Positions 2,689 to 59,994 of a stretch of DNA of 64,000 nucleotides are shown here, one piece after another. The stretch is from contig JAUIHT010000002.1 in NCBI GenBank assembly GCA_030432235.1, positions 249,136 to 313,135 of the forward strand. The letters run 5' to 3'. A model generated the notes under the pieces. The model made no database searches and was not told the DNA's origin. It saw nothing but the letters and a program-made list of their open reading frames with translations. This DNA is from Verrucomicrobiia bacterium (GTDB lineage Bacteria; Verrucomicrobiota; Verrucomicrobiia; Opitutales; Cerasicoccaceae). The translations under genes were made by a program, and so were the position numbers. Position 1 is the stretch's first letter. Every line of letters starts with the position of its first letter.

Positions 2689-2772
2689 TCATCTTCAGAA
2701 GCGGTATCCCGGTTCGTCATCACCCCTCCAGAGACGAACAAAGACACCGCCAAGAACATTAAAAACCTCGAA

Positions 2773-2803
2773 GCACGGAGCCGTCAGCGCTCCGTGCTTT
2801 TTT
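2773..2803 (+). terminator. rho-independent terminator downstream of pckG
   Basis: GCACGGAGC / GCTCCGTGC 9-bp stem followed by TTTTTT. Confidence 0.6.
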
Positions 2804-2887
2804 ATACGTAATCGGCACGAGTCGAGGAAACAGTCAACCATCTCGTGCTCGACAGCGGCGCCACAAATAACTCAAAATGATATAAGC

Positions 2888-3853: not shown

Positions 3854-3859
3854 CGAACG

Positions 3860-9740: not shown

Positions 9741-10696
9741 GCAGTGGCAGCCTCGTGCTGAATCCGTCGACGCGCCAGGGCGAGGGCCAGCAGACCCTTG
9801 CGCGGGCTGAATATCCACGCCACGCCGAAGAGCGCACCGGCCACCACGACCATCGCCCCGGCAATGCTCGTATCCAGCCACAGCGCCAGGTGGAAGCCCA
9901 GCAGCGAATACATAGCGCCCAGCGGCAAAGTCAGGCCTAGAATAAGCGGCAGGCGATCCGTCAGCATGGTGCCGGTGACCGCCGGAAAAATCAGCATGGC
10001 AATCACCAGAATAACGCCTACGGCCTCGAAGGAGCTCACCACGGTGACGGACAGGCAGAACATCAGCCCGTAGTGATAGACACTCGCGCGGATGCCCAAC
10101 GAACGTGCCAACGCGGGGTCGAAGGACGTCACCAGCAATTGCTTGTAGAAAAGAAACAGCAACGCCACCAGAACCAGGAACACTATCCCCATCTGCAGCA
10201 CCGGCCACGGGCCGAGGCTGACCGAGCCGATGCGCGCCTCCTGCATCAGCGGCATGAGCCCAATCTCGCCGTAGAGCACGCAGTCCGGATCGAGGTCCAC
10301 CTTGTCCGCGAAGAGCGCCAACAGGATGACACCGAGGGCAAAGAGAGTCGAAAACACAATGCCGAGGGCTGCGTCCGGCTTGACTCGCGAGCCGCGATGG
10401 ATGGCCTCGATAAGCGCAACGGTGACCAGTCCCGCCGCCACTGCTCCCGCCATCATCGGCAGCACACCGCGCGAACCCGATATCAGAAACGCAATGACGA
10501 TGCCCGGCAGGATGCTGTGGCTGATGGCGTCCCCCACCAGCGCCATGCGCCGGAAGACCAGAAACGTGCCGACCAATCCGCAGGCCGCGCTGACTAGAAA
10601 CCCCATGCCGACTATCCAGGCCGTGCCCACGGGGTCCCACTGCCAGGGCTCGACGAAGACAGTCTGAAAATCGAATGCTGGAATGAAGCCGTTCAT
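9737..10696 (-). CDS. metal (Mn/Zn/Fe) ABC transporter permease, ZnuB/MntB/YtgD-like
   Basis: 319 aa, polytopic, with ABC-3 family motifs (GDAISHSILPG, conserved permease core). Last gene of the minus-strand metal-importer operon. Confidence 0.85.
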   Translation of the reverse strand: MNGFIPAFDFQTVFVEPWQWDPVGTAWIVGMGFLVSAACGLVGTFLVFRRMALVGDAISHSILPGIVIAFLISGSRGVLPMMAGAVAAGLVTVALIEAIHRGSRVKPDAALGIVFSTLFALGVILLALFADKVDLDPDCVLYGEIGLMPLMQEARIGSVSLGPWPVLQMGIVFLVLVALLFLFYKQLLVTSFDPALARSLGIRASVYHYGLMFCLSVTVVSSFEAVGVILVIAMLIFPAVTGTMLTDRLPLILGLTLPLGAMYSLLGFHLALWLDTSIAGAMVVVAGALFGVAWIFSPRKGLLALALARRRIQHEAATA

Positions 10697-12273
10697 GAGC
10701 CGGGTTGACGGTAGCCCGTGGCGGCGGAATCACCGGCGGGTGCAGGTTGCAGGGTTTGCGGGATGGGTTTGCCGTGCGGATCGAGCTGTGGGTAGTTAAG
10801 CCGCTTCTCCAGTTCGCGCACAATCTCCTCGCCCAGGATGTGCTCAACGCGCTCGGCGTCGTCGTGAACATGATCGGCGGCGTACTGCGCGGCATTGGTC
10901 AGGTAAAGCTCCCAAAGACGGTGGTTGCGCACGACCTCGCTGGCCCGACGCCAGCCGCTGGGCGTCAACTGCACGTTGCGATGGGTGCCGGGCAGGCCGT
11001 TCTCCGTAGCCTGTACCACGGTGGCGAAGCCCGCTCGGGCCAAGGCGGCGGCGCGTTCCTCGGTTTCCGGCAGCGACTCGTTACGCTGAGCGGCGAGTTG
11101 GCCAAGGTTAAAACTTTCTTCGGCAAAGTTGCTTTGCTCTGCCAAGTGATAGAGAGCCTTCAAGGTGTTCTCATCGCGCACACGGCGGCGACGGCTCGCC
11201 TGCCGGAACCAGCGCGTAATCAGCCCGTGGCGCGGCCCGGCGAAGTAGGCCACGGTAAAGGCCACGCCTGCGCCCACCACCATAAAGGGGCCCGTCGGCA
11301 GGCTGTGCCCGAGGAAGGACAGAAAGGCGCCCAGCACCGCGCTGCCCACCCCGATGAGCGCGGCCAGCGTTAGCATCACGCCCATGCGGTCGGTCAACAG
11401 ATAGGCCGTGGCCGCCGGGGTGATGAGCATGGCCGAGACCAGCACCACGCCGGTGGCCTGCAGGGAAATCACCACCGCAAAAGCCAGCAGCGACATCAAC
11501 AGACTGTGCAGCATCCCAGTGGCCATACCGGAGCTACGCGCGAATCCGACGTCGAAGCTCGTGGTCAGCAGCTCCTTGTAAAAGAGCGCCACGGCCAGCA
11601 GCGCACAGGCGGTCACGATGCCCATCAACCAGAGGTCCTGAGTTGAGAGCGCGGCGGCCTGACCAAAGAGAAACTTGTCGATGCCGCTTTTGTTGCCCGT
11701 CGGCGAACGTTGGATCATGACGAAGAGGCAAATGCCCACAGCGTAAAATCCCGCCAGCACCATGCCCAGCGCACCGTCCTCCTTTACCGGCGTGGTCTTC
11801 TTGATCGCGCCAACCAGCCAGGTGCCGGCCAGCCCGGCCAGCGTCGCACCGATGAAAATGGCCAACGGATTCTTACTGGCGGCCCAGAGGAAGCCGAGCG
11901 CCACCCCTGGCATGACGGCGTGCGAGAGCGTGTCCCCCATGAGCGAGAGTTTGCGCACCACGATGAAGGCCCCGAGCAGCCCGCAGCAAACACCCATCAG
12001 GACCGACCCGATAAGCGCGTTGACCACCGCAGGATCGCTCAGGCTCCAGAAGCGCGCAGCCTGCTCCAGCCAGTCGGTCTCGCGCAGGTCACCGATTTTT
12101 GCCGCGTGGGCCAGGGATGTCCCAAACAGTAACCATAATATAAATATGGTTTTTTTCAGCCGCAGATGAAACGCAGATGAAACGCAGATTCGGGAGAAAA
12201 TAATCTGCGTAAATCTGCGCAAATCCGCGGCAAAAGAAAATGCCTGCTTGCTGATGGCGTCCTCCTTCATCAT
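10693..12273 (-). CDS. metal ABC permease fused to a complete DtxR-family repressor domain (YtgC-YtgR-like)
   Basis: N-terminal two-thirds is a ZnuB-type permease (LMGDTLSHAVMPGVALG...). The C-terminal 150 aa aligns to the DtxR wHTH plus metal-binding/dimerisation domain (ENTLKALYHLAEQS...RNHRLWELYLTN...ADHVHDDAERVEHILGEEIVRELEKRLNYPQLDPHGKPIP). The ATGATG start overlaps the znuC-like stop (ATGA). The first 40 codons are encoded by a CGCAGAT repeat array, so the true start may lie downstream. Confidence 0.8.
   Translation of the reverse strand: MMKEDAISKQAFSFAADLRRFTQIIFSRICVSSAFHLRLKKTIFILWLLFGTSLAHAAKIGDLRETDWLEQAARFWSLSDPAVVNALIGSVLMGVCCGLLGAFIVVRKLSLMGDTLSHAVMPGVALGFLWAASKNPLAIFIGATLAGLAGTWLVGAIKKTTPVKEDGALGMVLAGFYAVGICLFVMIQRSPTGNKSGIDKFLFGQAAALSTQDLWLMGIVTACALLAVALFYKELLTTSFDVGFARSSGMATGMLHSLLMSLLAFAVVISLQATGVVLVSAMLITPAATAYLLTDRMGVMLTLAALIGVGSAVLGAFLSFLGHSLPTGPFMVVGAGVAFTVAYFAGPRHGLITRWFRQASRRRRVRDENTLKALYHLAEQSNFAEESFNLGQLAAQRNESLPETEERAAALARAGFATVVQATENGLPGTHRNVQLTPSGWRRASEVVRNHRLWELYLTNAAQYAADHVHDDAERVEHILGEEIVRELEKRLNYPQLDPHGKPIPQTLQPAPAGDSAATGYRQPGS
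12160..12230. repeat. self-complementary array: 3 direct CGCAGAT heptamers (11-bp spacing), 13-nt spacer, 3 inverted ATCTGCG heptamers (10-bp spacing)
   Basis: Read directly: CCGCAGATGAAACGCAGATGAAACGCAGATT-cgggagaaaataa-TCTGCGTAAATCTGCGCAAATCCGCGG. The same heptamer arrays recur at 23301..23329 and 23744..23771. Confidence 0.6.
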
Positions 12274-32578: not shown

Positions 32579-32965
32579 TGTTAATGCAGGACTGACGGCC
32601 TGCGTTCGTTTTGGCCATAGGACCAAAGTGTCTAAAAAATGAGCCCGGGAGAGCGGACGACGAGGACGCGCCGCCACAGGCAAGCTCCACGGGGCTCGGC
32701 TTGAGCCGGGGTCAAACCGGAGCGCAGCCATGACTCCGCTTCCAACACCACTGTATCAGTCTCCTAATACAGATGCGTTTTCCACTTCGTGCATGCTTTG
32801 CTCCGGTTGTCTCCGGGCGGTATCCGCCGGGCCGCTGGTGGGCTGCCTGCTGGAGCCAGGGAAGAACGCCCCACACGGACGCATGACGCCCCTGCCCTGC
32901 TCCGGGCTTTGCGTGTCGCCGCCGCTCTCCGCGGGCGGTTTTCGAAGCCGGTGATTAGCCGGCGG

Positions 32966-33038
32966 GTGACGAGGAGGATTCGAACCTCCGACATCCGGCT
33001 CCCTAAGCCAGTGTGCTATCCACTGCACTACCGTCGCA
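32966..33038 (-). tRNA. tRNA-Pro-like, anticodon AGG (A34)
   Basis: Hand-folded cloverleaf: acceptor GCGACGG/TCGTCAC (one C-A mismatch), D arm GTGC-AGTGGATA-GCAC, anticodon stem CTGGC/GCCGG with loop TTAGGGA, T arm GGAGG-TTCGAAT-CCTCC. The Pro-type loop (U33, G37, A38) has A at position 34. Its 5' G at 33038 is shared with the neighbouring tRNA. Confidence 0.5.
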
Positions 33039-33110
33039 TACTGTCCGGGAATCGAACCCGAGACCGATGGTTTATGAGACCACTGCTCTACCAACTGAGC
33101 TACCAGTATC
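33038..33110 (-). tRNA. tRNA-Met (CAU), elongator-like (an Ile2/lysidine type cannot be excluded)
   Basis: Acceptor ATACTGG/ACAGTAT (A1-U72, G7.A66 mismatch), D arm GCTC-AGTTGGTA-GAGC, anticodon loop CTCATAA, T arm TCGGG-TTCGATT-CCCGG. The discriminator position coincides with G1 of the next tRNA. Confidence 0.6.
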
Positions 33111-33112
33111 GT

Positions 33113-33188
33113 GGTGCGGCCCGCTGGAGTCGAACCAGCGACCTACCCCTTCGTACAGGGCTGCTCTACCAACTGAGCTAGGGCCGCA
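33113..33188 (-). tRNA. tRNA-Arg (ACG)
   Basis: Perfect acceptor GCGGCCC/GGGCCGC, D arm GCTC-AGTTGGTA-GAGC, anticodon loop GTACGAA, T arm GCTGG-TTCGACT-CCAGC, discriminator A, CCA encoded. Confidence 0.85.
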
Positions 33189-33289
33189 TTTTCCTGAGAC
33201 CGTCCAGAACGTCAAGCGGGACACCGCACTCCAACAGGCTGGGCCAGGGAATACCGTGCCGCCGACCGGCGATCAGAAAGTGATATATG

Positions 33290-33360
33290 CTGCGGGGGAA
33301 GGATTCGAACCTTCGATGGCGGAATCAAAATCCGCTGTGTTACCGCTACACCACCCCGCA
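33290..33360 (-). tRNA. tRNA-Gln (UUG)
   Basis: Acceptor TGCGGGG/CCCCGCA (U1-A72, as in bacterial Gln), D arm GTGT-AGCGGTA-ACAC, anticodon loop TTTTGAT, T arm GAAGG-TTCGAAT-CCTTC, discriminator G. Confidence 0.8.
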
Positions 33361-33370
33361 AGGTAAAAAG

Positions 33371-33442
33371 TATCCGCAGCCGGAATCGAACCGGCGTTCT
33401 CACAGTGAAAGCGTGATGTCCTGACCACTAGACGATGCGGAC
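33371..33442 (-). tRNA. tRNA-Glu (UUC)
   Basis: Acceptor GTCCGCA/TGCGGAT (G1.U72 wobble), D arm GTCT-AGTGGTCA-GGAC, anticodon loop CTTTCAC, T arm GCCGG-TTCGATT-CCGGC. Confidence 0.75.
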
Positions 33443-33448
33443 AAAAAG

Positions 33449-33524
33449 TGGAGGCGCCGCCAGGATTCGAACCTGGTGAAACGGATTTTGCAGACCCGTG
33501 CCCTGGCCATTCGGGATCGGCGCC
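33449..33524 (-). tRNA. tRNA-Cys (GCA)
   Basis: Acceptor GGCGCCG/CGGCGCC, 3-bp D stem, anticodon loop CTGCAAA, T arm CCAGG-TTCGAAT-CCTGG, U73 discriminator (Cys identity element), CCA encoded. Confidence 0.8.
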
Positions 33525-33664
33525 GTATCAGATAAAAAACTTCGGGAGGCCGCCGCCCGGTCACCCCCGCAACACCTGTCAGGGTGCCATTGCCTGGCGC
33601 TATGTGACCGGGTGGGCTGCCTTCATCCCGAAATGTGTTTTGGGGATACTGTTAGAACCCCAAG

Positions 33665-33737
33665 TGGGAGCACATGGTTTCGAGCCATGACCTCCCGGTC
33701 TTCAACCGGACGTGCAGACCATCTACACCATACTCCC
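33665..33737 (-). tRNA. tRNA-Phe (GAA) with non-canonical T loop
   Basis: Acceptor GGGAGTA/TGCTCCC, D arm GTGT-(9-nt loop)-GCAC with G18G19, anticodon loop TTGAAGA (G37 rather than A37), T arm CATGG-CTCGAAA-CCATG (C at position 54). Confidence 0.6.
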
Positions 33738-33745
33738 TGAAATGG

Positions 33746-33818
33746 CTCGAAGGGCAGGCTACGATCCTGCAACTGCGTCCTTAACAGGGACGTGTTCTGC
33801 CAATTGAACTACCTTCGA
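33746..33818 (-). tRNA. tRNA-Asn (GUU) with non-canonical T loop
   Basis: Perfect acceptor TCGAAGG/CCTTCGA (U1-A72, as in E. coli Asn), D arm GTTC-AATTGGCA-GAAC, anticodon loop CTGTTAA, T arm GCAGG-ATCGTAG-CCTGC (A54/U58 swapped relative to the usual T54/A58), discriminator G. Confidence 0.65.
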
Positions 33819-34786: not shown

Positions 34787-35344
34787 TTACGCGCGGCTCA
34801 GGTAGGAGCCGTCGGTGGTGCTGACGCGGATAACCTCGTCCTGCTTAATGAAAAGCGGCACCTGCACGGACAGCCCGGTCTCGGTGGTGACGGGCTTCTG
34901 CACGTTGGACGCGGTGTCACCCTTGATGCCCTCGGGGGCATCGATCACCTTCATCTCGACGGCAGCGGGGAGGTTGATGTCCACCGGCTTGTCGTCGACC
35001 ATAAGAATGTCGTAGGTGTTGTTCTCGATCAGGTAGTCCTTGTACTCCTCGCAGATATCGGTCGGCAGGACGCTGTCCTCAAAGGACTCGGGGTCCATGA
35101 AGTGGTAGCCCATGTCGTCAATGTAGGAGAACTCCAGCTTCTGCGTACCGGTGTGGAGGAAGTCCACGCTGTCGGTGGAGCGGAACTTCGCCGTGGTCGA
35201 AGCGCCGGTGTTGAGGTTGCGCATAGTCACCTGCACGAAGCCGGCCTGACGGCCCTGCGTGCGGTGCTGCATCAAGAGAACGAGGTGCGGTGCGCTCTGA
35301 TAATCAAGGACGCGACCTTTACGGATTTCGGTGGGGGATGCCAT
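34787..35344 (-). CDS. efp: elongation factor P
   Basis: 185 aa. Three EF-P OB-like domains. Modification loop reads TQGRQAGF, with Arg at the position equivalent to E. coli Lys34. Confidence 0.95.
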   Translation of the reverse strand: MASPTEIRKGRVLDYQSAPHLVLLMQHRTQGRQAGFVQVTMRNLNTGASTTAKFRSTDSVDFLHTGTQKLEFSYIDDMGYHFMDPESFEDSVLPTDICEEYKDYLIENNTYDILMVDDKPVDINLPAAVEMKVIDAPEGIKGDTASNVQKPVTTETGLSVQVPLFIKQDEVIRVSTTDGSYLSRA

Positions 35345-35508
35345 GGTTGGAATGCTGGTTGGAAAAACGTGGCAGCAAGGGGGATTTCCCGGCGACTGTC
35401 AATCGCGCAGAATGCGTGGATAAGCCCCCATTATGTGAAAAAGACGGCACAAAAGCGTTTTTTCGTTTCAGGACGGAACAGAAACGGCTTACAAAGAACG
35501 TCCCGACT

Positions 35509-38500
35509 ATGAGTATCGACCTGCAAAAAGCTATTGGAATCACCCCCGGCAAGCGGGAAACGCCCTCGCGCGACCCCTTTCTGCTGGAATACGCCAACCT
35601 CAAGCTCGCTTCGCTGGGCCAGCCCATCTTCGGCACCCGCAAGGACTACCCGGTCATGCGGCTGGCACACCCGCTCCTGCGCGACTATCAGGAGAAAAAC
35701 CGCCTGCTCGCCGGCTACCTCTGCCCGGTCGACGCCCGCATCCAGTCCTTCATCGACCGCTACCTGGGCTCACTCGATGAGTCCGAGCCGCGCCCCCGCC
35801 TGCCCTCCTCCACCTTTACCGCGGACCGCCACGGGCTGGCCCGCATGCTTTCCCTGCCGCCGGACAAGGACCATTTCGCCTCGGACATCATCGACAGCTA
35901 CCGCCTCCATCAGGGCGTGTTGCACAATCCCAAGAGCGACCGCCGCACCACCCAGGGCGTCTTCCACGTGGCCGAAGGCGGCCTGCCCATCCCGGCGGAC
36001 AAACTGGCTGTGCCCAAGGTGACCTTCGCCCGCATGCTGGAGCGCGCCTTGCAGCCCCCCAGCGAGCTCATGCAGTTACCCTTTACCGCCAGCCAGGAGG
36101 AGAAGGCCGAGCTCTGGGTCTCGCTGCTACTACGCCCGGTGGTCTGCCCGGCCGTGCCCGGCGCCATCTCGGAAAAGCGCTACGAAGTGCGCTTCTTCGC
36201 TCCCGGCAACCTGGTCAGCAATCTCGACTTCGTCGAAAGCATCTTCGGCAACGCCGGAGACCCTTATCTGGGCGAGAACGACGCCGCCCTCGATGTCGAC
36301 GGCTGGACCGGCCACAGCGGCTGCGTCATCCTGGCCCCGCACCTCATCCGCTGCACCAAAAAGGAGCTGGGCCTGCCCAACATCGCCGACGCCACCGAGC
36401 GCCAGAAACGCGACAAGATGTGCTGGGAAAAGGAAGACGAGCTCTACAACGGCGGCGGCGCCTTCAAGCTCACCACCCGCGACGCCAGCGGGGTTGTCGT
36501 TACCATCATCGCGGACAACTATTTCGGCTACTGCAAGAAGGAGGTCAAAACCCAGATCAGCTTTAGCGCCAACCTCTACGGCCTGACCGAGGAGGAGCAC
36601 TCCGGCGGCGCCATCGCCTTCCCCAGCTACGACCTCGGCGAGGACTTCATCCTGCCCCAAAGCCTGCCCGACGCCGATTACACCTTTGACGACTTCCTCA
36701 AGCGCTATGGCGACTCGGTCAACGTCACCGAAGAAGGCTACGCCGTCGACAAAACCCACCCGGACATCCTTTTCGTGCCAGAGGACGCCGCCTTCTCCCT
36801 GCAGGAGCAAAGCGTCAAGTGGGAGCGCGGCGGCAAGCAGTGCGAACTGCGCCTGCGCCCAGGCGTCACTTATGTGCTGCCCAGCGGCTATAAGGTCGAG
36901 ATGGTGCGCCGCCACAGCGGACAGCGCTGGCGCCTCATCGGCATCACCGCCGAAGGCACCTTCTGCCACAAGCCCTGCACCGTCTCCGGCGGTGGCAAGA
37001 GCGAGATTTCAAAGTCCATCGGCGATGCCATGATCTTCGGTCCGGCCATCGTGGCGGACTACCAGAAGGACTTCGATTTCGTCGAGGAAATCATCGATAA
37101 GGAGTACGGCGAACGCTTCAAGGACGAGTCCAAGAACCGCAAGGCGGGCCGACCGTTGCTCAGCCCGGCGCGCTCCCTCGGCTCCGTGGTCAAGCTCCTG
37201 ACGCCCTCGCCGGAGTACAAGCCCGACTACAACACCTGGCTCAAGACCATCCCCTTCTACATCAAGGAGCTCGTCTTCATCGTCAAACGCTTCTACAAGG
37301 AGGACTGGGGCAAGGACTGGCGTTCGCGTTTCAACGTCGACCTGGTCAACGGCACTTCCGGCAACGAACTGAAGTACCGTAACGGCAAACTCGTCTCCCA
37401 GTACCTGCGCGTCGGTTACACCGCCGAGGGCGCGTGGCGCACGTTCGGCCTGCGCAAGGACTTCTCGCCCGCCTTCAAGCTCCAGCTCGAGGACGACATC
37501 ACCGCCTCCGCCGTCTTCCCCGTGGATCAGGTGGATGGGCTGCCCGCCGAGTCGCTGCACCCCTCGGTCAAGCTCGCGCTCAACTGCGAATACCGGCTCT
37601 TCCAGCGCCCCGACGATGCCATCCATCGCGGCTACGACAAACGCACCGAGTCGGACATGTCGCTGCCCGGCAACTTCTTTTCCAACTACGCGCCGCTGAC
37701 CCGCGAGCAGGCCCAGGCTATCGTCGACGACACCATCCGCTTCGACCAATACACCGACCCGATCAAGGAGCTTATCCGGGACTTCCTGGCCAAGCCCAAC
37801 GGCGAGTACCTGAGCCTGCCCTCGCATCCGCGCATCGTCGACGGCAAGCCCACCAAGAACCCCCGCTACCTGCAGGACCGCGATGACCTCGTCGACCCGC
37901 GCAGCTTCTATCTGGGTCAACTCGGTCTGCAGCTTAATCGCAAGCTTCCACTCGGCGCCCCCGCACCGATGCCGGTCAACGCCGTGCTGCCGGGCCGTCG
38001 CAACAACCCGCCCGAAGACGGCATCCGCCCGCTGGCGGTCTTCAACCCGCTGCACTACCTGCCGCTGCCGGAGTTTTTCATGGAGGTCGTCTCCAGCATG
38101 ACCGGCAAGAGCCCGTCCACCACTGGCGCCGGAAGCGAAGGGGCTTTGACCAAGGGTCCCTTCAACGCCCTGCCGCCCGTGGTCGATCTCAACAACGCGC
38201 TCGTGTCCTTCCTCCTGACCGGTTACCCGCCCTTCATCTCGGCCGCCGGTTACGTCGGGCCGAAGTGCCGCGTCGATCACGACATCAGCCTGCTCGTGCC
38301 CGAGCTGTGGTGCCGCATGCGCGGCCGGGAACAGGAACCGGCATGGCTTATCGAGGAAGAGATGCTGGAAAAGTGCGAGGACATCGAGCACAAGGGCAAG
38401 ACCATCCCCGGCAGCATGCTGGGCTACCGCATCACGGAGAAATTCGTCATCCGCATCTTCGGGCGTATGTTCGCCAATCCCGCCGCGGTCTTCACCCCCG

Positions 38501-38970
38501 AGATGCTCCGGCCCGAAACCCAGGACCTGGATATCTTTGCCGACGGCATGGACAACATCATGGCCACCCACCATCGTGTCGCCGGGCTGTACTTTGAGGA
38601 CGGCTCCATCGAGGGCGCCATCCCGCCACTCAAGGCCCTCCTCCATATCATGAAAGACGGCAACTACGAGGGCAAGGGACTTGAGCACCCGGACATCCGC
38701 GCGCTCTTCACCCGCGAGTCGGTCATCGAAAGCGACTGGTATCAGGAACGCCTGGCCTGCCGCCAGAAGCTCCAGGTCGCCCGCTGGGAAAACGCCCTGC
38801 AGTGCCTGAATTCCTTCAACAACGAGCCTTCACGCGCCGCCGAGGCCAAAATGATGGATATCCCAGCCCGCATCGACCTGGCCAAGCACGCCATCGCCGC
38901 CGTTCAGGCCAAGGCATATCTCGGCAAGCTCAGCGGCACCCTCGGCACCGACCCGTATTTGCACGGCTGA
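35509..38970 (+). CDS. very large conserved hypothetical protein (1153 aa)
   Basis: Uninterrupted 3.46 kb frame with strong codon bias. The track ORF from 35290 overlaps efp, so the start was set to MSIDLQKAIG at 35509. No Walker, HTH, TM or signal motifs recognised. Confidence 0.6.
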   Translation: MSIDLQKAIGITPGKRETPSRDPFLLEYANLKLASLGQPIFGTRKDYPVMRLAHPLLRDYQEKNRLLAGYLCPVDARIQSFIDRYLGSLDESEPRPRLPSSTFTADRHGLARMLSLPPDKDHFASDIIDSYRLHQGVLHNPKSDRRTTQGVFHVAEGGLPIPADKLAVPKVTFARMLERALQPPSELMQLPFTASQEEKAELWVSLLLRPVVCPAVPGAISEKRYEVRFFAPGNLVSNLDFVESIFGNAGDPYLGENDAALDVDGWTGHSGCVILAPHLIRCTKKELGLPNIADATERQKRDKMCWEKEDELYNGGGAFKLTTRDASGVVVTIIADNYFGYCKKEVKTQISFSANLYGLTEEEHSGGAIAFPSYDLGEDFILPQSLPDADYTFDDFLKRYGDSVNVTEEGYAVDKTHPDILFVPEDAAFSLQEQSVKWERGGKQCELRLRPGVTYVLPSGYKVEMVRRHSGQRWRLIGITAEGTFCHKPCTVSGGGKSEISKSIGDAMIFGPAIVADYQKDFDFVEEIIDKEYGERFKDESKNRKAGRPLLSPARSLGSVVKLLTPSPEYKPDYNTWLKTIPFYIKELVFIVKRFYKEDWGKDWRSRFNVDLVNGTSGNELKYRNGKLVSQYLRVGYTAEGAWRTFGLRKDFSPAFKLQLEDDITASAVFPVDQVDGLPAESLHPSVKLALNCEYRLFQRPDDAIHRGYDKRTESDMSLPGNFFSNYAPLTREQAQAIVDDTIRFDQYTDPIKELIRDFLAKPNGEYLSLPSHPRIVDGKPTKNPRYLQDRDDLVDPRSFYLGQLGLQLNRKLPLGAPAPMPVNAVLPGRRNNPPEDGIRPLAVFNPLHYLPLPEFFMEVVSSMTGKSPSTTGAGSEGALTKGPFNALPPVVDLNNALVSFLLTGYPPFISAAGYVGPKCRVDHDISLLVPELWCRMRGREQEPAWLIEEEMLEKCEDIEHKGKTIPGSMLGYRITEKFVIRIFGRMFANPAAVFTPEMLRPETQDLDIFADGMDNIMATHHRVAGLYFEDGSIEGAIPPLKALLHIMKDGNYEGKGLEHPDIRALFTRESVIESDWYQERLACRQKLQVARWENALQCLNSFNNEPSRAAEAKMMDIPARIDLAKHAIAAVQAKAYLGKLSGTLGTDPYLHG

Positions 38971-40494: not shown

Positions 40495-40869
40495 TCAATC
40501 ATGACAGGTCGGACAGCGCCCGAAGAAAACCACGTCCTCCCCATCGATGGTGAAACCCTCTGGCGGCGTGTAGCCATGCATGACCTCCGGCGTCTCACCG
40601 GGCAGTTGGAAGACCTGGCCGCACTGCCGGCAGATGAAGTGCGGGCAGTGCTCACCCGTCGGCAGCTCATAGCGGGTCGGTTGCCCCGGCAAATAAACGC
40701 GCACCAGCAGCATTTCGTCCATCATCTCGCGCAGATTGCGGAAGACCGTGCGCTCCCCCACGCGCGGGCAGCGAACACGCGCGCCGGCCAGCACCTCCTC
40801 CCAGCTTAAAGGGCGCGCGGCCTCCTGCAAAGTGGCCAGGATGGCTTCGCGCTGCTTCGTCTGCCGCAT
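40495..40869 (-). CDS. Fur-family metal-responsive transcriptional regulator
   Basis: 125 aa. HTH region plus HCPHFICRQCGQ and the C-terminal CPTCH metal sites. The track ORF has a 28-aa N-terminal extension, so the start was set to MRQTKQREAIL. Confidence 0.8.
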   Translation of the reverse strand: MRQTKQREAILATLQEAARPLSWEEVLAGARVRCPRVGERTVFRNLREMMDEMLLVRVYLPGQPTRYELPTGEHCPHFICRQCGQVFQLPGETPEVMHGYTPPEGFTIDGEDVVFFGRCPTCHD

Positions 40870-41021
40870 ACCATGGGTTTTCACAAGGCGCAGATAAACC
40901 CACGATCGCTTCAGGCGCAAAGCGTTTTTATCTATCGCGCTTGCTATTGACATTTAACTGCCAATTAATGCTTGCAGAGCCCGAGCTTTCCTCTTTGCAT
41001 CGCTTCAAACCTGACAACCCA

Positions 41022-42167
41022 ATGCATAAGACAACCACCCTCTTCATCGCTCTCAGCCTGCTCGGCGCCGCCTCCGCGCCAGCCTTAACCCAGGGTTTCG
41101 AGGCCTTCGGCATCGCCGCCGACACCTTCGAGGAAGGCCCCACGCCCAATGCCGTGGTTACGGAGACGACAGATCCCTTCGGGCCGGACAGCGGCCTGCA
41201 AATCACCGCCAACGGCATCTGGCATACCGGCGACGCGATAGGCTTCCGTAATATCTTCAACGAAGTCGAGAACCCCGTCGGCACCCTCTCCTACACCTTC
41301 TGGAACGGCGTCGGGCTCTCCACCCTCGTCGACACGACCACGGAGGGCTTTGCCAACGAAGGGGCGGCCTATACCGGAGGCGGCGCCAATTTCTCCGGCG
41401 AAATAGTCCCCGGCGGCGCCTATGGTATTGTCTTTCCCTTTTTTGAAAACACCAGCGAGATCGCCCTCAGTGCCTATTACTCCCTGCAAGGCATGTACAT
41501 CACCAACACCACCTACGCTGCCCTGGCCATGCTCAACGGCAACGGCGTCTCCCGGCAGTTCGAGCAGGGTGACTGGTTCCAGATGACCATCACCGGCCTG
41601 GATAGCGACGAAAACGTGACAGGCCAGTTGTTCGTCTTCCTGGCCGATTACCGCTCCAGCAATCCCGACGATCATTACATCCTCGATGAGTGGGAATGGA
41701 TCGACATGAGCGGCTTCGGAGAGAGCACCGCCAATTTGCGCTTCTCCTTCTACTCCTCGGATGTCGGCGAGTATGGCATCAACACCCCCACCTATGTGGC
41801 CATCGACAACGTGGTCCTTACGGCTAAAGCCCTGGCCGGCGCAGTGCCGGTTGCCGATGGCTGGAGCTATTCGCCGTGGTTCGGAGATTACTACGACGCC
41901 AACCTGCCCTGGGTCTACCAAAACGACCTCGGCTGGCTCTACCTGGACCCACAGAGCACCCCCGACGACATCACCTTATACAGCAACCTGCTAAGGTGGG
42001 CTTACACCACCGCCGAAGCGTATCCCTGGCTCTACGTCATGGACGAAGGCGCCTGGCTCTATTACATCAAGGGAACAGAAAACCCGTGGCTCTTTTACGA
42101 CGCCGATACCAAGGAAATCGTCGAATATCCACATGACATCGACCTTGAAATCGGTGTAGCGGATTAA
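41022..42167 (+). CDS. secreted hypothetical protein with C-terminal Trp/Tyr-rich module, upstream of the TonB receptor
   Basis: Signal peptide MHKTTTLFIALSLLGAASAPA. C-terminal DLGWLYLD...PWLYVMDEGAWLYY, shared with the 57427..59994 protein. Confidence 0.5.
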   Translation: MHKTTTLFIALSLLGAASAPALTQGFEAFGIAADTFEEGPTPNAVVTETTDPFGPDSGLQITANGIWHTGDAIGFRNIFNEVENPVGTLSYTFWNGVGLSTLVDTTTEGFANEGAAYTGGGANFSGEIVPGGAYGIVFPFFENTSEIALSAYYSLQGMYITNTTYAALAMLNGNGVSRQFEQGDWFQMTITGLDSDENVTGQLFVFLADYRSSNPDDHYILDEWEWIDMSGFGESTANLRFSFYSSDVGEYGINTPTYVAIDNVVLTAKALAGAVPVADGWSYSPWFGDYYDANLPWVYQNDLGWLYLDPQSTPDDITLYSNLLRWAYTTAEAYPWLYVMDEGAWLYYIKGTENPWLFYDADTKEIVEYPHDIDLEIGVAD

Positions 42168-44137
42168 TGTGCCCTGCCAGGGCATTCATGATGGTAGCGG
42201 CGGCGTTCCTCGGGGTGTCGCCGCTTGGTGCGCAAGAGGTCGACGACGTCATCGAAATGGAGCCCTTCGTGGTCACCGCCAGTCGCTTCGATGAGTCCGC
42301 CGAAAACATCCCGGTCAACCTCGACCTCATCACGGCGGACGCCATCGCCGAGTCCGGCGCCAGCGATGTCGTCGAGGTTCTGGAAAAAGAAGCCGGGGTC
42401 TACTTCCGCAACACCACCGGCAACGCCTCCACCGCCGAGGCCGACCTGCGCGGCTTCGGCGAGAACAGCGGCGTACGCGTCCTCGTGCTGGTCGACGGCG
42501 TCAAGCTGAACCGGCCCGACATCGGCGCCCTCAACTGGCTGCAGCTCCCGTTGGAGCAAATCGAGTCCATCGAGGTCCTGCGCGGCACGCAAACCGCCCT
42601 CTACGGCAACAACGCCGCCGGGGGCGTCATCAAAATCACGACTAAACAAGGGCTCGGGGAGCCCGGCGGCAGCCTCTCCACCCAAGTGGGCAACTACGGC
42701 CTGGTCGACGTCCGCGGCGGCTACAGCGGCAGCACTGGCAAACTCTCCGTGGCGGCCAACGGCGACTACAACCAGCTCGACGGCTACCGCGCCAACTCCC
42801 GCGTAGAATCCAAAAGCGGCAGCGCCAGCCTCGGCTACGCTTTTTCCGAAAAACTCAGCCTGCGCGGCTCCTTTGCCTATACCGAGACCGACAGCCTCTT
42901 CCCCGGTGGCCTGACACTCACGCAGGCACAGGACGACCCGCGGCAGTCGTTTAACGACGCGGCCACCTCCTACTCCGACGAAACCATCTGGCGCGGCGAC
43001 CTCCAGGCCACCTACGCCATCGAGAGCGATAACCGCCTCGAGTTCACCGCCGGCTACCTCAACCGCAGCCTCGCCTGGTCACTGGCCGGACCGGGGGCGG
43101 ACAATACCATCCAGACCCTGACCGTCTCCCCGCGCCAAGTGCTCGAATGGACGGACTGGAAGCTGGTCTACGGGCTGGACTACATCCGCGACGACCTGGA
43201 CTTCACCATCTTTCAGAACAACAACCGAGCCACGTCCACCGGCTACGGTCGCCTGACCCGCGACTCCGTCGGCGGCTACGCCCATGTGCAATATCAGCCG
43301 GACGAACGCTGGGTGCTCTCCGCCGGGCTGCGCCTCGAAGGCACCTGGCTCGACGGCTCCAACGTGGACAGGCAACCGCCCATCCAGAACTTCGACGCCC
43401 GCAAGAGCGACTTCGGCGTGGCCGTCGACGCCGGCGCGGTCTACAAAGTGAACGAAGACCTGCGCCTGTGGACGCGCTTTGACCGCCTTTACCGCTACCC
43501 CGCCACCGACGAAATCGCCGCCTATCAGGGCTACCCGCTGACCCAGCCCTTCAACTTCAGTCTCGACCCCGAGACCGGCTACAACGTCGAGGTCGGTCTC
43601 GACTGGGCACGGGACGGCTTTTTCGCCGGGGCCAATCTCTTCGGCATGTGGCTCGACGGCGAAATCGGTTACGACTACCTGCAAAGCCTCAACATCAATA
43701 TCGGCGACAGCCGCCGCCTAGGGGCCGAGCTTGCTCTCGGCTACGGCAACGAGCACTGGAGCCTGCGCGCCGACTACAGCTTCATCGACGCCAACTATAC
43801 CAGCGGCTTTTACGACGGTTACGCCGTCTGGCTCGTCCCCCGGCAACGCCTCGGCCTACGCGGGCAAATCAACTTCACCCGGGAGCTCGCACTCATCGCC
43901 CGCTACAGCTACACCGCCGAGCAGGACCAGGGCAACAACATCACCGGCACACTGCCCAAGCTGCCCAGCTACCAGCTCGTCGACCTGCTCCTGCGCTATA
44001 ACATCCGCCCGTGGTGGAGCGTCTTCGGCGGCATCGACAACCTGACCGACGCGCGCTACTTCACCGTCGCCTACGCCGGGGTTTACTATCCCGCCAACGG
44101 CCGAACCTTCAAAGTCGGCACGCGGGTGAGCTTCTGA
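42167..44137 (+). CDS. TonB-dependent outer-membrane receptor
   Basis: Signal peptide, plug domain (FVVTASRF TonB box region, IEVLRGTQTALYGNNAAGGVIKITTK), 22-strand barrel length, terminal aromatic residue F. Start overlaps the preceding stop (TAATG). Confidence 0.9.
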   Translation: MCPARAFMMVAAAFLGVSPLGAQEVDDVIEMEPFVVTASRFDESAENIPVNLDLITADAIAESGASDVVEVLEKEAGVYFRNTTGNASTAEADLRGFGENSGVRVLVLVDGVKLNRPDIGALNWLQLPLEQIESIEVLRGTQTALYGNNAAGGVIKITTKQGLGEPGGSLSTQVGNYGLVDVRGGYSGSTGKLSVAANGDYNQLDGYRANSRVESKSGSASLGYAFSEKLSLRGSFAYTETDSLFPGGLTLTQAQDDPRQSFNDAATSYSDETIWRGDLQATYAIESDNRLEFTAGYLNRSLAWSLAGPGADNTIQTLTVSPRQVLEWTDWKLVYGLDYIRDDLDFTIFQNNNRATSTGYGRLTRDSVGGYAHVQYQPDERWVLSAGLRLEGTWLDGSNVDRQPPIQNFDARKSDFGVAVDAGAVYKVNEDLRLWTRFDRLYRYPATDEIAAYQGYPLTQPFNFSLDPETGYNVEVGLDWARDGFFAGANLFGMWLDGEIGYDYLQSLNINIGDSRRLGAELALGYGNEHWSLRADYSFIDANYTSGFYDGYAVWLVPRQRLGLRGQINFTRELALIARYSYTAEQDQGNNITGTLPKLPSYQLVDLLLRYNIRPWWSVFGGIDNLTDARYFTVAYAGVYYPANGRTFKVGTRVSF

Positions 44138-44161: not shown

Positions 44162-44908
44162 TTATTCAGAGCGGCGGCGCCATACCACGAAACCAATCAC
44201 GGCAATACCGCACAGGACAGCGTACAGGGAAGGCTCCGGAACCACAGTGATGTCATCCACGTAACTGGTGTAGGCACCGTAATCGCTGCCGGTTTCGCCA
44301 GCGCCTACGCGCACCTCCAGCACACCCAGATCGCCCCAGAGACCACTGCCCGTCGAGAAGCCACTAAGACTAGAGAGCGTATCAACGGTACTGGCTGTAG
44401 AGTAGGACGAACCCAGTCCGGGACGAGCGCCTACCACATGCACATCCGTGCCTCCATCGATGCCACTGATCTGCCAGGTATCAAACTGAACTGCCGGGCC
44501 ATCCGTGATAAAGGCAATAACAAACGAATCGTCCCCGAAGTTAAAGGTCTGGTCGCCATTGGTATCCACTCCGAAATACATGTAAGGCAGGTATGCCGGG
44601 TTCCCCGAAGAAATGTAGGAATAGAATGTGCCTGCGGCCTCTTTGAGGGATAAGGAACCAGGCGCAAAGTCGATGATTACCTTCGCGAAGTCTGTTACCG
44701 TGTTGGCGAGCGAGAGTTGCGCCGAGTGCGTAGGGCTCAATGCCTGATCTTCGCTTAGTACCGCCGTTCCAGCGCCGTCTCCGTCGAGACTGTATCCACC
44801 GGATTCAAAATCGACGTAGCGGTAAGCAGCAGTCAACAGGCTATTACCAAAAATCAAAGAGGCGGCAATGATCGCCAACTTGTAGTAGTTTTTAGTGAGT
44901 GGTTTCAT
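44162..44908 (-). CDS. PEP-CTERM sorting-domain secreted protein
   Basis: Start at MKPLTKN (44908), preceded by AAGGAGATATAAAG. C-terminus VVPEPSLYAVLCGIAVIGFVVWRRRSE. Confidence 0.75.
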   Translation of the reverse strand: MKPLTKNYYKLAIIAASLIFGNSLLTAAYRYVDFESGGYSLDGDGAGTAVLSEDQALSPTHSAQLSLANTVTDFAKVIIDFAPGSLSLKEAAGTFYSYISSGNPAYLPYMYFGVDTNGDQTFNFGDDSFVIAFITDGPAVQFDTWQISGIDGGTDVHVVGARPGLGSSYSTASTVDTLSSLSGFSTGSGLWGDLGVLEVRVGAGETGSDYGAYTSYVDDITVVPEPSLYAVLCGIAVIGFVVWRRRSE

Positions 44909-45253
44909 CTTTATATCTCCTTTATTAGCGTTTTTCAGATATACTTCAACGATTACGAGGATATTCTCGATGTCCACAACCAAACAGTACTTGTAATAGA
45001 TCTCAGTTAAAAAAGCATTAATAGAGTCATTTATCATAATAAAATAGGGCATATGCCCTATCTCCTGATTGCCCTAGTCCCACTGGACAGACATCGGCAC
45101 CTATTTGTAGCCTTACTCCCCCGCCAACGGCCGCACCTTGAAGGTCGGTATGCGGTTAAGCTTCTAAGCGTCAGTCTCAATATTAGAATCCCTAACCCAC
45201 TTGGACTGAACAACTTGCTTGAAAAAGGGGCTGATTCTGCTTTGCTACTAATC

Positions 45254-56500: not shown

Positions 56501-56995
56501 TTACGGCTCCAGGATATAGGTGTAGGCGGAGCCACTGTTGCTTTGAAAGGATCCCGAGGTCAGGCTTCCGTCGTCGAGCATCTGGTCCAGGCGCGCCATG
56601 AACTCATCGTCAGCCACGGAATCGCGCAACGATATGCCCGCCGTAAAGGAAAAGGCGCCCGGTCCCTCCCAGTCCCAGGTGCCCTCCATGACGGAGGCTT
56701 GCTCAAAAGTGCCTTCGGTGATGTAGCCATCCATGACACTGGGGAGGACGCCCGGACTCTCGTCATCCGGCCATTGCCCGTTCTCCATGGCGTAGGTTTC
56801 AAAGCCGGAGCGGAACTGCCGGTAATCGTTGGCCAGGCGGCTCTTGTAGGTGCCTTCCTTGGCCGTGCGTACCGCCGGGACGGCCAGCAGGGCCAGCAGC
56901 CCGATGACCACGACGACTACCATGATTTCAACCAGGGTAAACCCAGGCGAACGTGCTGCTCTCTTCGCGAGTATCTGATGGATGATCGGTTTCAT
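56501..56995 (-). CDS. prepilin-type N-terminal cleavage/methylation domain protein (type II secretion/type IV pilin-like pseudopilin)
   Basis: N-terminal GFTLVEIMVVVVVIGLLALLA prepilin motif after a basic leader. Confidence 0.8.
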   Translation of the reverse strand: MKPIIHQILAKRAARSPGFTLVEIMVVVVVIGLLALLAVPAVRTAKEGTYKSRLANDYRQFRSGFETYAMENGQWPDDESPGVLPSVMDGYITEGTFEQASVMEGTWDWEGPGAFSFTAGISLRDSVADDEFMARLDQMLDDGSLTSGSFQSNSGSAYTYILEP

Positions 56996-57426: not shown

Positions 57427-59994
57427 ATGAAAACAAGCATACTCTCCTACCTAAGCCAGGGACTGCTTTCCCTGTCCCTGATGAGCCTTACCCTCGGTGG
57501 TAGCCTTCACGCCAAAATCGACGACTACACCCAGAACAATCACTGGGAATTCTCGAAAAATCACGAAGCCAATGTTTCACGCATGGAAACCATCGGCTGG
57601 GCTGATCGGCTCTTTTATTTCTGGGCCAAAAATGATGGCCACCTGGCGTACCGTGCCGCGAAAATCGAACTGAGCGCCAGCGACAAACCTGTGATTAAAA
57701 ACGAAGGCCAGGAAAAGAATTTCGCCAAAGGCTGGGATCACAAAAAGGTTGGCTTTGCCCCCACTCTGTACGGAGACGACCTGTACTTGTTCATCTACGT
57801 GGATGGCGGCAAGTCCATGGCCTACAGCGTTTTTCGCAAGGAAGCCGACAATACCGCGGTCAAGAATATCTCCACCACGGAGACCATTAAGCTCAAGCTT
57901 GAGGGGCAGCCGAAGGGTTTCACCATCGGCACCATGACCGCCTTCACCATCGAGGGGGAAATCTACCTGCTCATCGGCGACGCCAGCGGGACTTCGCTGG
58001 AGCCCTACATCTTCCACTTCGACAAGGTCACGAAAGCAACGTACCTCGGCTCGCTCTCCAAGCTGGGTGCGCCCAGCGGCACGACTCCCCTGACTCCGGA
58101 AAGCACGCAGCGTTACCGCGCCGCCAACCTCATCGTGGACGATGAAAACGGCGATCCCCTCGAGGTGGCCGTTATCAGTTACATGCGAGATACCGACATC
58201 GTCGGCGTCGTCGCCTTTGACGGCGAAGGGATTATCAGCGGCAAGACCTTTACTAAAAAGCTACTGGGCCTGGGCAGTAAAAGGGCCCTGGAAACCGTCA
58301 GTCTCGCCCTGGGTGGCCTGCGGGGCGGCCCGAAGATCGAGGATGCCGCGTTGCAGCTTGTCCTGACATCGGACGACAAGGCTATCAACGCCCACGGCCT
58401 GCATTATACCCATAAAGGCGGGTTCTTTCTCTACGGCTCCTCACTGTCCTATGAGGGCAAGGACTGGTTCGACAATTTTCCCGGCGCCAGCATCCTCAGT
58501 GTGCGCGGCAACACCGTCATCGTCCCCTCAAAGGCGCATAAAGGCTCCCTGCGGCGCGTGGTGGTGATAACCGGCGGCGGCGCCAATTCCTCCCAGTCCC
58601 AAATCGACGTCAACGCGACCCAGTCGGACGTCCTGCGACCCGTCCAACAAGTGGCTATCGACACTCAGAACGCCACCTTGCGTGAGCTCCCCAAGGGAAC
58701 CGCGCAGCCCATACTCGACGACACGATCGCCAACAATCTCTCCCGTCTCTGGAATCTGCTCGGGGTCATCACCGGTGTGCCTCCCTACACCAGCACCACC
58801 CCGCCCGACAAGGTCACCAGCAGCATCAGTTGGAACAAGACCGATACGCTGACCAGCCAGGTCGACCATTCCAGCTCCGCCTCCACCTCGGCCGGCTTCC
58901 TCGGCAAGGCGCACACGGGTGTCGGCGGCTTCAACTTCGGCGCGGCCAGGACCTGGACGACCGTCAACTCCACCAAGCGCACCATCAGCTTCGGCTTCGA
59001 CATCAAGCTCACCGCGCCCGTGACGAAGAAGGGCGAGATCACCGGCTGGATGGTCGTCTACCAGCCCATCATCCTGGCAACCCTCTTCCACGAGTATGCT
59101 CCCAACAACAAGGACGACTACGGTCGTTACTACATCGTCTACACTCAGGACGCCACGCTGAATGCCGACCGCAACGTCAACCTGATATCCTTCCCCCTGA
59201 CCGCTCCCAACGACCTGCTCTCGCCGCTTTCCAACGGCATGTTCGGTGGCGACCCTCTGGAAGGCTGGCCCAGCAGCAACGATCCGGTGGGCTGGCACAA
59301 ACAGGTCTTCGACGGTTATCGCGACGGCATCGGTCTGCCTGCCATGACCACCACGGTGAACGCCTCGGAGTCCGCCAGCACGTTCGTCGATGAAAACAAC
59401 GCCAAGCAGAAAGCCCAGAAAATCGACTGGAGCATGAAGCTGGAACTGCCCTTCGACCTGGGTGCGTTTCTGGGAGCCGGCCTCGGTGGTGGCCAGACCT
59501 GGACGACCACCAACACCCAAAGTACCGCGTTCTCGCAGGCCCTCACCCTTGAGCTTTCCCAAATCGAATCGACTGGAGCCATCGGCGAAATTGACCGCTA
59601 CAACCTGCTCCCCTATCTGCTTTATCCGAACAGTGATGCCAACTGGATCCCCTGGGACGGCTTCCCCCAGTCCGCTCCCTGGTGCCTGAGCTACATCGTG
59701 ACCGGCCTGCACAAGCGCGGCGACGAATTACTCGGCACCTTTGCCTTCGGTGACGTCTATCAGGATAGCAACAACGCGAACAATCTTTACTCCGATTGGC
59801 TCGGCTGGCTGTACGAAACTGACACGCCCTGGTTCTTCGACTACCGCCGCCACCGCTGGCTCTACAGCTACATCTCCTCCATGCCGGACAACTTCTGGTA
59901 CTACAGCGAAGACAAGAGCTGGGCCTGGACTCAAGACGTTCTCTACCCCTGGTCGTACGTGGTTGAGGACGAAGCCTGGTCCTACGACCCATAA
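57427..59994 (+). CDS. large secreted hypothetical protein (855 aa) with C-terminal Trp/Tyr-rich module
   Basis: Signal peptide MKTSILSYLSQGLLSLSLMSLTLGGSLHA. Beta-rich body. C-terminal WLGWLYETD...PWSYVVEDEAWSYDP, matching the module in the 41022..42167 protein. Preceded by a 430-bp AT-rich leader. Confidence 0.55.
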   Translation: MKTSILSYLSQGLLSLSLMSLTLGGSLHAKIDDYTQNNHWEFSKNHEANVSRMETIGWADRLFYFWAKNDGHLAYRAAKIELSASDKPVIKNEGQEKNFAKGWDHKKVGFAPTLYGDDLYLFIYVDGGKSMAYSVFRKEADNTAVKNISTTETIKLKLEGQPKGFTIGTMTAFTIEGEIYLLIGDASGTSLEPYIFHFDKVTKATYLGSLSKLGAPSGTTPLTPESTQRYRAANLIVDDENGDPLEVAVISYMRDTDIVGVVAFDGEGIISGKTFTKKLLGLGSKRALETVSLALGGLRGGPKIEDAALQLVLTSDDKAINAHGLHYTHKGGFFLYGSSLSYEGKDWFDNFPGASILSVRGNTVIVPSKAHKGSLRRVVVITGGGANSSQSQIDVNATQSDVLRPVQQVAIDTQNATLRELPKGTAQPILDDTIANNLSRLWNLLGVITGVPPYTSTTPPDKVTSSISWNKTDTLTSQVDHSSSASTSAGFLGKAHTGVGGFNFGAARTWTTVNSTKRTISFGFDIKLTAPVTKKGEITGWMVVYQPIILATLFHEYAPNNKDDYGRYYIVYTQDATLNADRNVNLISFPLTAPNDLLSPLSNGMFGGDPLEGWPSSNDPVGWHKQVFDGYRDGIGLPAMTTTVNASESASTFVDENNAKQKAQKIDWSMKLELPFDLGAFLGAGLGGGQTWTTTNTQSTAFSQALTLELSQIESTGAIGEIDRYNLLPYLLYPNSDANWIPWDGFPQSAPWCLSYIVTGLHKRGDELLGTFAFGDVYQDSNNANNLYSDWLGWLYETDTPWFFDYRRHRWLYSYISSMPDNFWYYSEDKSWAWTQDVLYPWSYVVEDEAWSYDP

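Follow-up and report, generated by a model that had tools for sequence, protein, structure and literature searches.

A tryptophan- and tyrosine-rich terminal module shared by two otherwise unrelated exported proteins of a Verrucomicrobiia bacterium, best described as a new domain family

Why do two exported proteins that have nothing else in common end in the same aromatic-rich sequence? The question is raised by a stretch of 64,000 nucleotides from the genome of a Verrucomicrobiia bacterium of the order Opitutales (GenBank assembly GCA_030432235.1, contig JAUIHT010000002.1, positions 249,136 to 313,135 of the forward strand), referred to below as the window and numbered from its first letter. 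Two of its genes, here called A and B, specify proteins with similar tryptophan- and tyrosine-rich (W/Y-rich) tails.

41022..42167, + strand: gene A, 381 aa, with a signal peptide, a DUF4465 corrinoid-binding domain and a W/Y-rich module (open reading frame (ORF) list, Pfam, public protein P0001)
57427..59994, + strand: gene B, 855 aa, with a signal-peptide-like N-terminus (MKTSILSYLSQGLLSLSLMSLTLGGSLHA), a passenger of about 750 residues and a W/Y-rich module (ORF)

A first-pass annotation, made from the sequence and its ORF list, had quoted both tails and put them forward as a candidate sorting or cell-surface binding tag; the quoted strings are present in the translations of A and B. The shared element fits best the description of a new domain family, one of promiscuous modules for tethering or targeting at protein termini. 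It has members in more than 3000 protein clusters, is without a model in either Pfam or NCBIfam, and appears to replace known anchors. Opitutales and Puniceicoccaceae are major marine polysaccharide degraders, and to our knowledge the surface display of enzymes, adhesins and nutrient-binding proteins in these groups is poorly understood. A definition of the module would allow better annotation of thousands of hypothetical proteins, flag the probable surface proteome in the carrier phyla and provide a testable handle on surface display.

The two tails and their family

The module was delimited in each protein as follows.

41829..42131, + strand: W/Y-rich module of A, residues 270-370, full-length form (profile, AlphaFold2 (AF2) model, alignment with orthologues and B)
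59755..59988, + strand: W/Y-rich module of B, residues 777-854, short divergent form (independent profile)

BLASTP aligned residues 283-347 of A with residues 788-853 of B (39% identity over 66 aa, pairwise E 4e-10) and nothing outside the tails, the remainder of the two proteins being unrelated. BLASTP also gave an off-register alignment (E 0.006), a hint of repeats within the sequence. Both tails are 25-31% aromatic, and two W/Y-rich, low-complexity ends could in principle resemble each other by composition and chance. This explanation was refuted by shuffling, by the family search and by an independent profile, and can be given practically no weight. The Smith-Waterman score of the two tails was 138, compared with 40.6±8.0 (maximum 85) for composition-preserving shuffles; none of 5000 shuffles reached 138, and the observed score lies about 12 standard deviations above them, so the similarity is not an effect of W/Y richness. 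The independent profile, built from 157 other family members and excluding both B and P0009, the orthologue of A, matched A with 102.6 bits (E 1e-24) and B with 44.7 bits (E 1e-6; profile positions 10-77 of 100), both at a database size of 1.8e9. Chance also fails to account for thousands of significant family members that share conserved non-aromatic positions (G, P, H, T), or for a confident fold prediction. The homology of the tails and the unrelatedness of the rest, as claimed in the first-pass annotation, are thus well founded, and the similarity is far above that of shuffled W/Y-rich sequence. The length given there, 60-70 residues, was too short for A, whose module covers residues 270-370, while that of B covers 777-854.

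The module of A has ten beta-strands (five hairpins) in the AF2 model and is followed by 11 more residues. That of B is without the last beta-hairpin of the family consensus and without the conserved His, and the missing hairpin is not encoded in the downstream frames of B. The same short form is present in loci from Thermodesulfobacteriota metagenome-assembled genomes (MAGs; L028, L045 and L119). In the window, no carriers other than A and B were found by a profile search or by scanning all six frames for the motif.

The family was collected with a profile of nine A-type tails and the B tail, used in an exhaustive HMMER search of 1.84 billion cluster representatives. This gave 3104 representatives at E<=1e-3, of which 642 were at E<=1e-10, so that the further occurrences for which the first-pass annotation had suggested looking were found in the thousands. 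A word-indexed search with the A tail alone returned nothing, and the family was revealed only by the exhaustive HMMER search. The family consensus is LG.GW..S.WFG.F.....PWIYH..HGWLY.......W.....LGWLWT....YP.LY.....WLYY..G...PR.FYN.....W, and its W, G, P, H and T positions are conserved at 94-98%.

The first-pass annotation had also asked whether the tails belong to a repeat family already described, and no such match was found in Pfam or NCBIfam. No Pfam-A or NCBIfam model covers the module in A, in B or in their tails alone at E<=10, the sole match in the Pfam scan of the tails at this level being a sub-threshold OCRE (E 0.81). Likewise, 121 members scanned with Pfam and NCBIfam had no model on the module and no family common to more than seven of them. 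A sequence profile search of the PDB with the module gave nothing significant; a retinoschisin discoidin match (E 0.22) was rejected. A literature search on the motif strings, or on a C-terminal domain of Verrucomicrobia, found nothing relevant.

The module is about 95 residues long (80-100), all-beta, and poor in Lys and Cys, with 10.4% Trp, about 26% W/Y/F and a median pI of 5.0. AF2 modelling of the A tail from a 73-sequence alignment predicted ten short strands forming five hairpins with high confidence (mean pLDDT 93.4, pTM 0.82), and a full-length model of A, made from a shallow alignment, has the same strands at pLDDT 70-80. Foldseek searches with the module against the PDB and viral models (BFVD) gave no match at E<=1e-3, and no TM-score exceeded 0.28. 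As modelled, the module is a compact, independently folding globular domain without a recognisable solved relative. Internal repetition is limited to a single hairpin-level match (W-x-Y-H…G-W versus W…G-W-L-W-T; hhalign probability 88%), and the domain may have arisen from hairpin repeats that now act as one unit. Short matches of 92-145 aa, considered as possible stand-alone module proteins, look like fragments or mis-called starts and were rejected.

Carrier taxa were surveyed with a degenerate DNA pattern (WFG…PW[ILV][YF]H…GW), which recovers about 26% of known modules, and tallied from record titles. At least 119 loci were found. Among the matches listed, about 83 loci belong to Opitutia (Opitutales, Puniceicoccaceae, Oceanipulchritudo and Ca. 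Moanabacter), 15 to other or unspecified Verrucomicrobiota, 5 to Victivallales, and 16 to Syntrophobacteraceae, "Deltaproteobacteria" and Thermodesulfobacteriota MAGs; the hosts are mainly marine Opitutales and Puniceicoccaceae. The 16 loci outside the Planctomycetes-Verrucomicrobia-Chlamydiae (PVC) group (L002, L003, L010, L013, L028, L031, L036, L044, L045, L054, L055, L058, L059, L110, L118 and L119) have copies scoring 67-122 bits, all ending within two residues of the stop codon, and their presence outside this group suggests horizontal spread or binning errors.

Placement, partners and export of the module

Among the top 150 database matches the module is no more than 15 residues from the C-terminus in 130 (median 4), while about 18 copies are more than 50 residues away, mostly right after the signal peptide, and nine of the 150 proteins have two copies. 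The genome-derived carriers are similar: among the matches listed, the distance from the module to the stop codon is at most 15 residues in 108 of 130 and more than 50 residues in 16 of 130. Overall, about 85% of copies are C-terminal, about 12% are N-terminal or internal, and some are in tandem. Copy number can be high. In one Opitutales MAG, 112 kb of sampled sequence contained at least 22 carriers, and the true number in that genome is probably several-fold higher, because the DNA pattern recovers only about a quarter of known modules, as given above.

The partners are diverse: between them, the 121 proteins scanned have 92 Pfam families, such as Ig-like, cadherin, PKD and FN3 domains, S8 and M36 peptidases, CAP domains, cupredoxins, peptidyl-prolyl isomerases (PPIases), sulfatases, beta-propellers and DUF4465. 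In P0157, a PPIase of the cyclophilin/FKBP type, the module stands in place of the N-terminal region. Most full-length carriers are Sec-like at the N-terminus and a few are twin-arginine-like. A lipobox-like motif was found in at most 7 of 90, so few carriers look like lipoproteins. These results bear out the idea of a mobile, homologous module on many unrelated and mostly exported proteins, usually at the extreme C-terminus and in many copies per genome.

The same position is filled by other elements in related proteins. In other phyla, the last element of DUF4465 homologues is a type IX tail (PF18962) or a PEP-CTERM signal (PF07589), and relatives of the myxosortase- and rhombosortase-dependent M36 peptidases have the module instead. 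A choice-of-anchor Q domain, one of a group named for the alternative anchors that they precede, is present in five members, and in P0122, where coordinates were shown, it lies directly before the module. On these sequence comparisons the module is in the anchor position, in keeping with the likeness to PEP-CTERM and type IX domains that the first-pass annotation had suggested.

Not all carriers are exported. P0132, P0164 and P0242, three independent cluster representatives, are Stf0-family sulfotransferases of the type dependent on 3′-phosphoadenosine 5′-phosphosulfate (PAPS), with the module at the C-terminus. Their catalytic domain begins at residue 10-17, leaving no room for a signal peptide, and the expectation that carriers are consistently secreted does not hold for them. 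The Stf0 carriers are found in three loci (L122, 6001-7533; L125, 1602-3239; L124, 432-1958). P0242 and P0132 (loci L122 and L125) are among genes for GT2 glycosyltransferases and Methyltransf_24 proteins, and L122 also has epimerase/RmlD and dTDP-sugar isomerase genes, with P0242 only 27 nt from its upstream gene. The setting in L122 and L125 looks like a locus for synthesis of a sulfated or methylated polysaccharide.

A second type of glycan-associated setting is found in 13 Opitutales loci (L029, at 7-5508, and L009, L022, L034, L041, L051, L082, L086, L090, L097, L107, L108 and L117), where two GT4 glycosyltransferase genes come after a giant Ig-like carrier with a terminal module and share its strand. 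L022 and L107 have one GT4 gene only, and in L029 a thioredoxin-like gene is next. The giant carrier is up to about 2,400 aa long and is cut by the locus ends. The recurrent GT4, thioredoxin and HisF neighbours all come from this one conserved type of locus. Across the 119 8-kb loci listed, no partner gene is generally conserved and no candidate partner family was found near the carriers.

What the module may do

The reading favoured here, to which we give a probability of roughly 0.45, is that the module is a non-covalent binding module, probably for an envelope glycan, that keeps exported proteins on the producing cell. We infer three parts of this reading: binding rather than cleavage, a glycan as the ligand, and retention at the cell surface. 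Sec-exported carriers would stay on the cell that made them by means of the module, usually C-terminal, instead of a PEP-CTERM, type IX or lipid anchor. The module would recognise a particular envelope glycan. On the cytoplasmic sulfotransferases it would guide the enzyme to its acceptor glycan, and on exported proteins the same module would hold its carrier on the finished polymer. A binding or anchoring domain, the second option of the first-pass annotation, is favoured over the first, a processed sorting signal, by the N-terminal and tandem copies, by the Stf0 carriers without signal peptides, and by a build unlike that of PEP-CTERM, with neither a transmembrane helix nor an Arg cluster. 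The link to glycans is drawn from the Stf0 genes in polysaccharide loci, from the GT4 genes after the giant carriers, and from a composition (aromatic residues with Ser, Thr, Asn and Gly) that is typical of lectins and carbohydrate-binding modules.

Several points weigh against this reading. No fold relative that might hint at function was found in the PDB or BFVD, and the conserved aromatic residues may form the core of the predicted domain instead of an exposed binding face. The module is acidic (median pI 5.0), unlike the known binders of anionic wall polymers, which are basic modules. The glycosyltransferase genes beside some carriers may reflect lineage-specific synteny and not a functional link. 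The PPIase and cupredoxin partners are typically periplasmic, and the site of action could be the periplasm. The strong C-terminal bias, with copies that often reach right up to the stop codon, is also what might be expected of a secretion signal.

A wider proposal is that the module is the recognition or attachment domain of an undescribed surface display system shared by Opitutales, Victivallales and some Desulfobacterota, with a receptor of its own. The receptor would be a particular polysaccharide of the envelope, perhaps sulfated or methylated, or else an outer-membrane machine dedicated to the purpose. Taken with all its parts the proposal is unlikely. If true, it would add a fourth functional route to those of exosortase, type IX and lipoprotein anchoring, and this route would use a fold unmatched in the PDB and BFVD searches.

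Other functions would share some of these features. The module might bind environmental polysaccharides, such as the sulfated glycans of algae, and not the envelope of its own cell. As a small, aromatic-rich beta domain of mainly marine hosts, attached to sulfatases and sulfotransferases, with the N- or C-terminal placement and tandem copies that are typical of carbohydrate-binding modules, it has the expected appearance; carbohydrate-binding modules and dockerins are likewise small autonomous units at either end of many catalytic or binding domains, and sometimes duplicated. However, the module has no homology or fold match to solved examples of either. Its partners are not enriched for glycoside hydrolases or polysaccharide lyases, neither of which is among the partner families common to two or more of the 121 members; they are mostly Ig-like, cadherin, protease, CAP, cupredoxin and B12-binding domains. 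Moreover, in the DUF4465 and M36 homologues the module replaces cell anchors and not carbohydrate-binding modules. We regard environmental binding as improbable. Next in order, and again improbable, is a sorting or secretion tag, a folded C-terminal domain with a role like that of the type IX one. Such a tag would be read by the machinery of a dedicated, as yet undescribed, outer-membrane pathway for export or attachment, and would afterwards be cleaved off or linked covalently. The extreme C-terminal position of about 85% of copies, often ending at the stop codon, the dozens of copies per genome, the interchange of position with type IX tails and PEP-CTERM, the place after choice-of-anchor Q, and a size and all-beta nature that resemble the type IX C-terminal domain are all consistent with such a tag. 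It is difficult to reconcile with the N-terminal and tandem copies, with the PAPS-dependent sulfotransferases that lack signal peptides and lie in cytoplasmic biosynthesis clusters, with the lack of a neighbouring gene conserved across the 119 loci listed, and with the lack of sequence or fold likeness to known sorting domains. The least likely of these alternatives is a dockerin-like docking or oligomerisation domain, by which passengers would be gathered into multimers or on a receptor of the envelope that they share. The variety of passengers and the high copy number would suit it, as would the replacement of the N-terminal region in the PPIase P0157 and the presence on cytoplasmic enzymes, where docking is a possible function, but no candidate partner family is found near the carriers and the module is not like dockerins or known oligomerisation domains. 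The DUF4465 protein D5EK51 is monomeric (PMC13398666), but it lacks the module and is uninformative on it.

In function the module is like type IX C-terminal domains, PEP-CTERM tails, choline-binding, GW and WxL anchors, carbohydrate-binding modules and dockerins, but it lacks the defining features, in sequence and structure, of each family with which it was compared. With the type IX C-terminal domain (Por_Secre_tail, PF18962 / TIGR04183) it has in common an all-beta fold, a length of about 80-100 residues, a C-terminal place on many unrelated secreted proteins, dozens of copies per genome and the same position on DUF4465 homologues. However, PF18962 and TIGR04183 had no match in A, B or the tails alone and are absent from the families listed for the 121 members, and the module does not have the Ig-like beta-sandwich fold of solved C-terminal domains. 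PEP-CTERM and the other tripartite signals (GlyGly-CTERM, MYXO-CTERM and the LPXTG type, with substrates of exosortase, rhombosortase and myxosortase among them) are also C-terminal appendages on diverse exported proteins, multicopy, interchangeable in homologous proteins and preceded by choice-of-anchor domains. They are about 20-35 residues long and combine a motif with a transmembrane helix and a cluster of Arg residues (Haft preprint), whereas the module is a soluble beta domain of about 95 residues without a hydrophobic helix. None of 150 carriers has a 15-residue stretch of KD>=2.0 within its last 35 residues (median -0.01, maximum 1.98) or an Arg cluster, so the analogy with PEP-CTERM that was first proposed does not extend to build. 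Tripartite signals are always at or very near the C-terminus, unlike the module, with about 12% of copies N-terminal or internal and two copies in 9 of 150 carriers. The module also shares features with choline-binding repeats (CW_binding_1, PF01473), GW modules and WxL domains, the non-covalent wall anchors of Gram-positive bacteria. GW and YY motifs in aromatic beta-hairpin units and a mostly C-terminal place are common to both, as is the proposed role, the non-covalent retention of proteins on a polymer of the envelope. The tails do not match the PF01473 model, a repeat of about 20 residues with a beta-beta-solenoid fold, at E<=10, and no choline-binding structure was among the fold matches listed. 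That the module is a type IX C-terminal domain or a choline-binding repeat, the two to which the first-pass annotation had likened it, is therefore not supported by sequence model or fold.

Proteins A and B in the window

The remaining features of A and its neighbourhood are listed below.

41022..41084, + strand: probable Sec signal peptide of A, MHKTTTLFIALSLLGAASAPA (sequence and hydropathy, KD10 2.49)
41292..41813, + strand: DUF4465 domain of A, residues 91-264 (Pfam PF14717, E 1.8e-45)
42167..44137, + strand: TonB-dependent receptor with Plug and TonB_dep_Rec domains (sequence)
40495..40953, - strand: Fur-family regulator, divergent from A (PF01475; NCBIfam PerR/Fur/Irr-like matches under cut-off)

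The public gene call of A (P0001, 399 aa) begins at 40968, which is 54 nt upstream and 15 nt from the Fur start codon; the start at 41022 looks more plausible. The N-termini of both A and B are Sec-like, in agreement with the signal peptides first annotated, as judged by sequence and a crude hydropathy test; the cleavage site of A is a putative one, and residues 1-21 of A form a low-confidence N-terminal helix in the AF2 model. The order Fur, A, TonB-dependent receptor was as originally described. The ATG of the receptor overlaps the TAA stop of A by one base (TAATG, 42165-42169), and the receptor is therefore probably co-translated with A. Its partial NCBIfam matches are to siderophore, heme and B12 receptor models, all under the curated cut-offs.

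The DUF4465 domain of A scores 155.9 bits against PF14717, compared with a gathering cut-off of 25. Its fold is a beta-jellyroll, and characterised homologues bind vitamin B12. A PDB sequence search matched residues 18-265 of A to solved, B12-bound DUF4465 structures: 9HMU (Coraliomargarita akajimensis D5EK51, B12 complex; E 2.7e-20), 9FCT (E 3.6e-13) and 9I2L, the last two being BtuJ1 and BtuJ2. All of the solved chains end where the tail of A starts. B12 binding is conserved across the DUF4465 family (PMC13398666, 2026), and by its sequence the domain of A is a BtuJ-like member of this B12-binding family. A is coupled to a TonB-dependent receptor, as btuJ and btuH are to btuB, but the BtuJ and BtuH proteins of Bacteroides are lipid-anchored and riboswitch-regulated, whereas A is without a lipobox and has a Fur-family neighbour. 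No cobalamin riboswitch was found upstream of A or anywhere in the window, where Rfam detected tRNAs only. Either the ligand or the regulation of A may differ from that of the Bacteroides btu loci. The attachment device of A would be the W/Y-rich module, keeping the B12-binding domain at the surface beside the receptor encoded by the overlapping gene; the module suggests how a B12-scavenging domain could stay by a TonB-dependent transporter without a lipid anchor.

The nine closest homologues of A all have the tail: P0001, which is identical to A, and P0002-P0009, with 46-65% identity. The orthologue in the cultured species Rubellicoccus peritrichatus is annotated only as "DUF4465 domain-containing protein". 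The gene order of Fur, DUF4465 protein with tail, and downstream gene recurs in the orthologous contig L121, in which pseudopilin genes flank the A orthologue.

B has no Pfam or NCBIfam domain, and a search with the full-length protein against 5.8 billion proteins found only B itself. Its passenger (57427-59754) is an orphan exported protein, and lacking homologues, B offers no independent functional clue. In B the module would tether this orphan passenger of about 750 residues. Just upstream, on the opposite strand, is a gene with a prepilin-type N-terminal methylation sequence (pseudopilin, GspG-like; 56501-56995, - strand).

One further protein of the window bears on sorting.

44162..45052, - strand: PEP-CTERM protein (…VVPEPSLYAVLCGIAVIGFVVWRRRSE; sequence; NCBIfam PEP_CTERM_FxDxF, residues 251-293, E 9e-6, under cut-off)

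Its C-terminal hydropathy is 2.68, compared with 1.98 or less in all module carriers, and it shows that the organism also uses a classical tripartite sorting signal.

Other genes of the window include eight tRNA genes clustered within about 850 bases (32965-33818, - strand) and two different phosphoenolpyruvate carboxykinases (PEPCKs; 600-2417 and 35290-38970, both + strand). One of these is a GTP-type PEPCK and the other has a PPi-type PEPCK lobe (PF26300); the protein with the PPi-type lobe is a 1226-residue ORF in the window and 1153 aa as called in L001. The gene at 10693-12273 (- strand) specifies an unusual fusion, in which a metal-transporter permease of the ABC-3 family is joined to the C-terminal metal-binding and dimerisation domain of an iron-dependent (DtxR-type) repressor.

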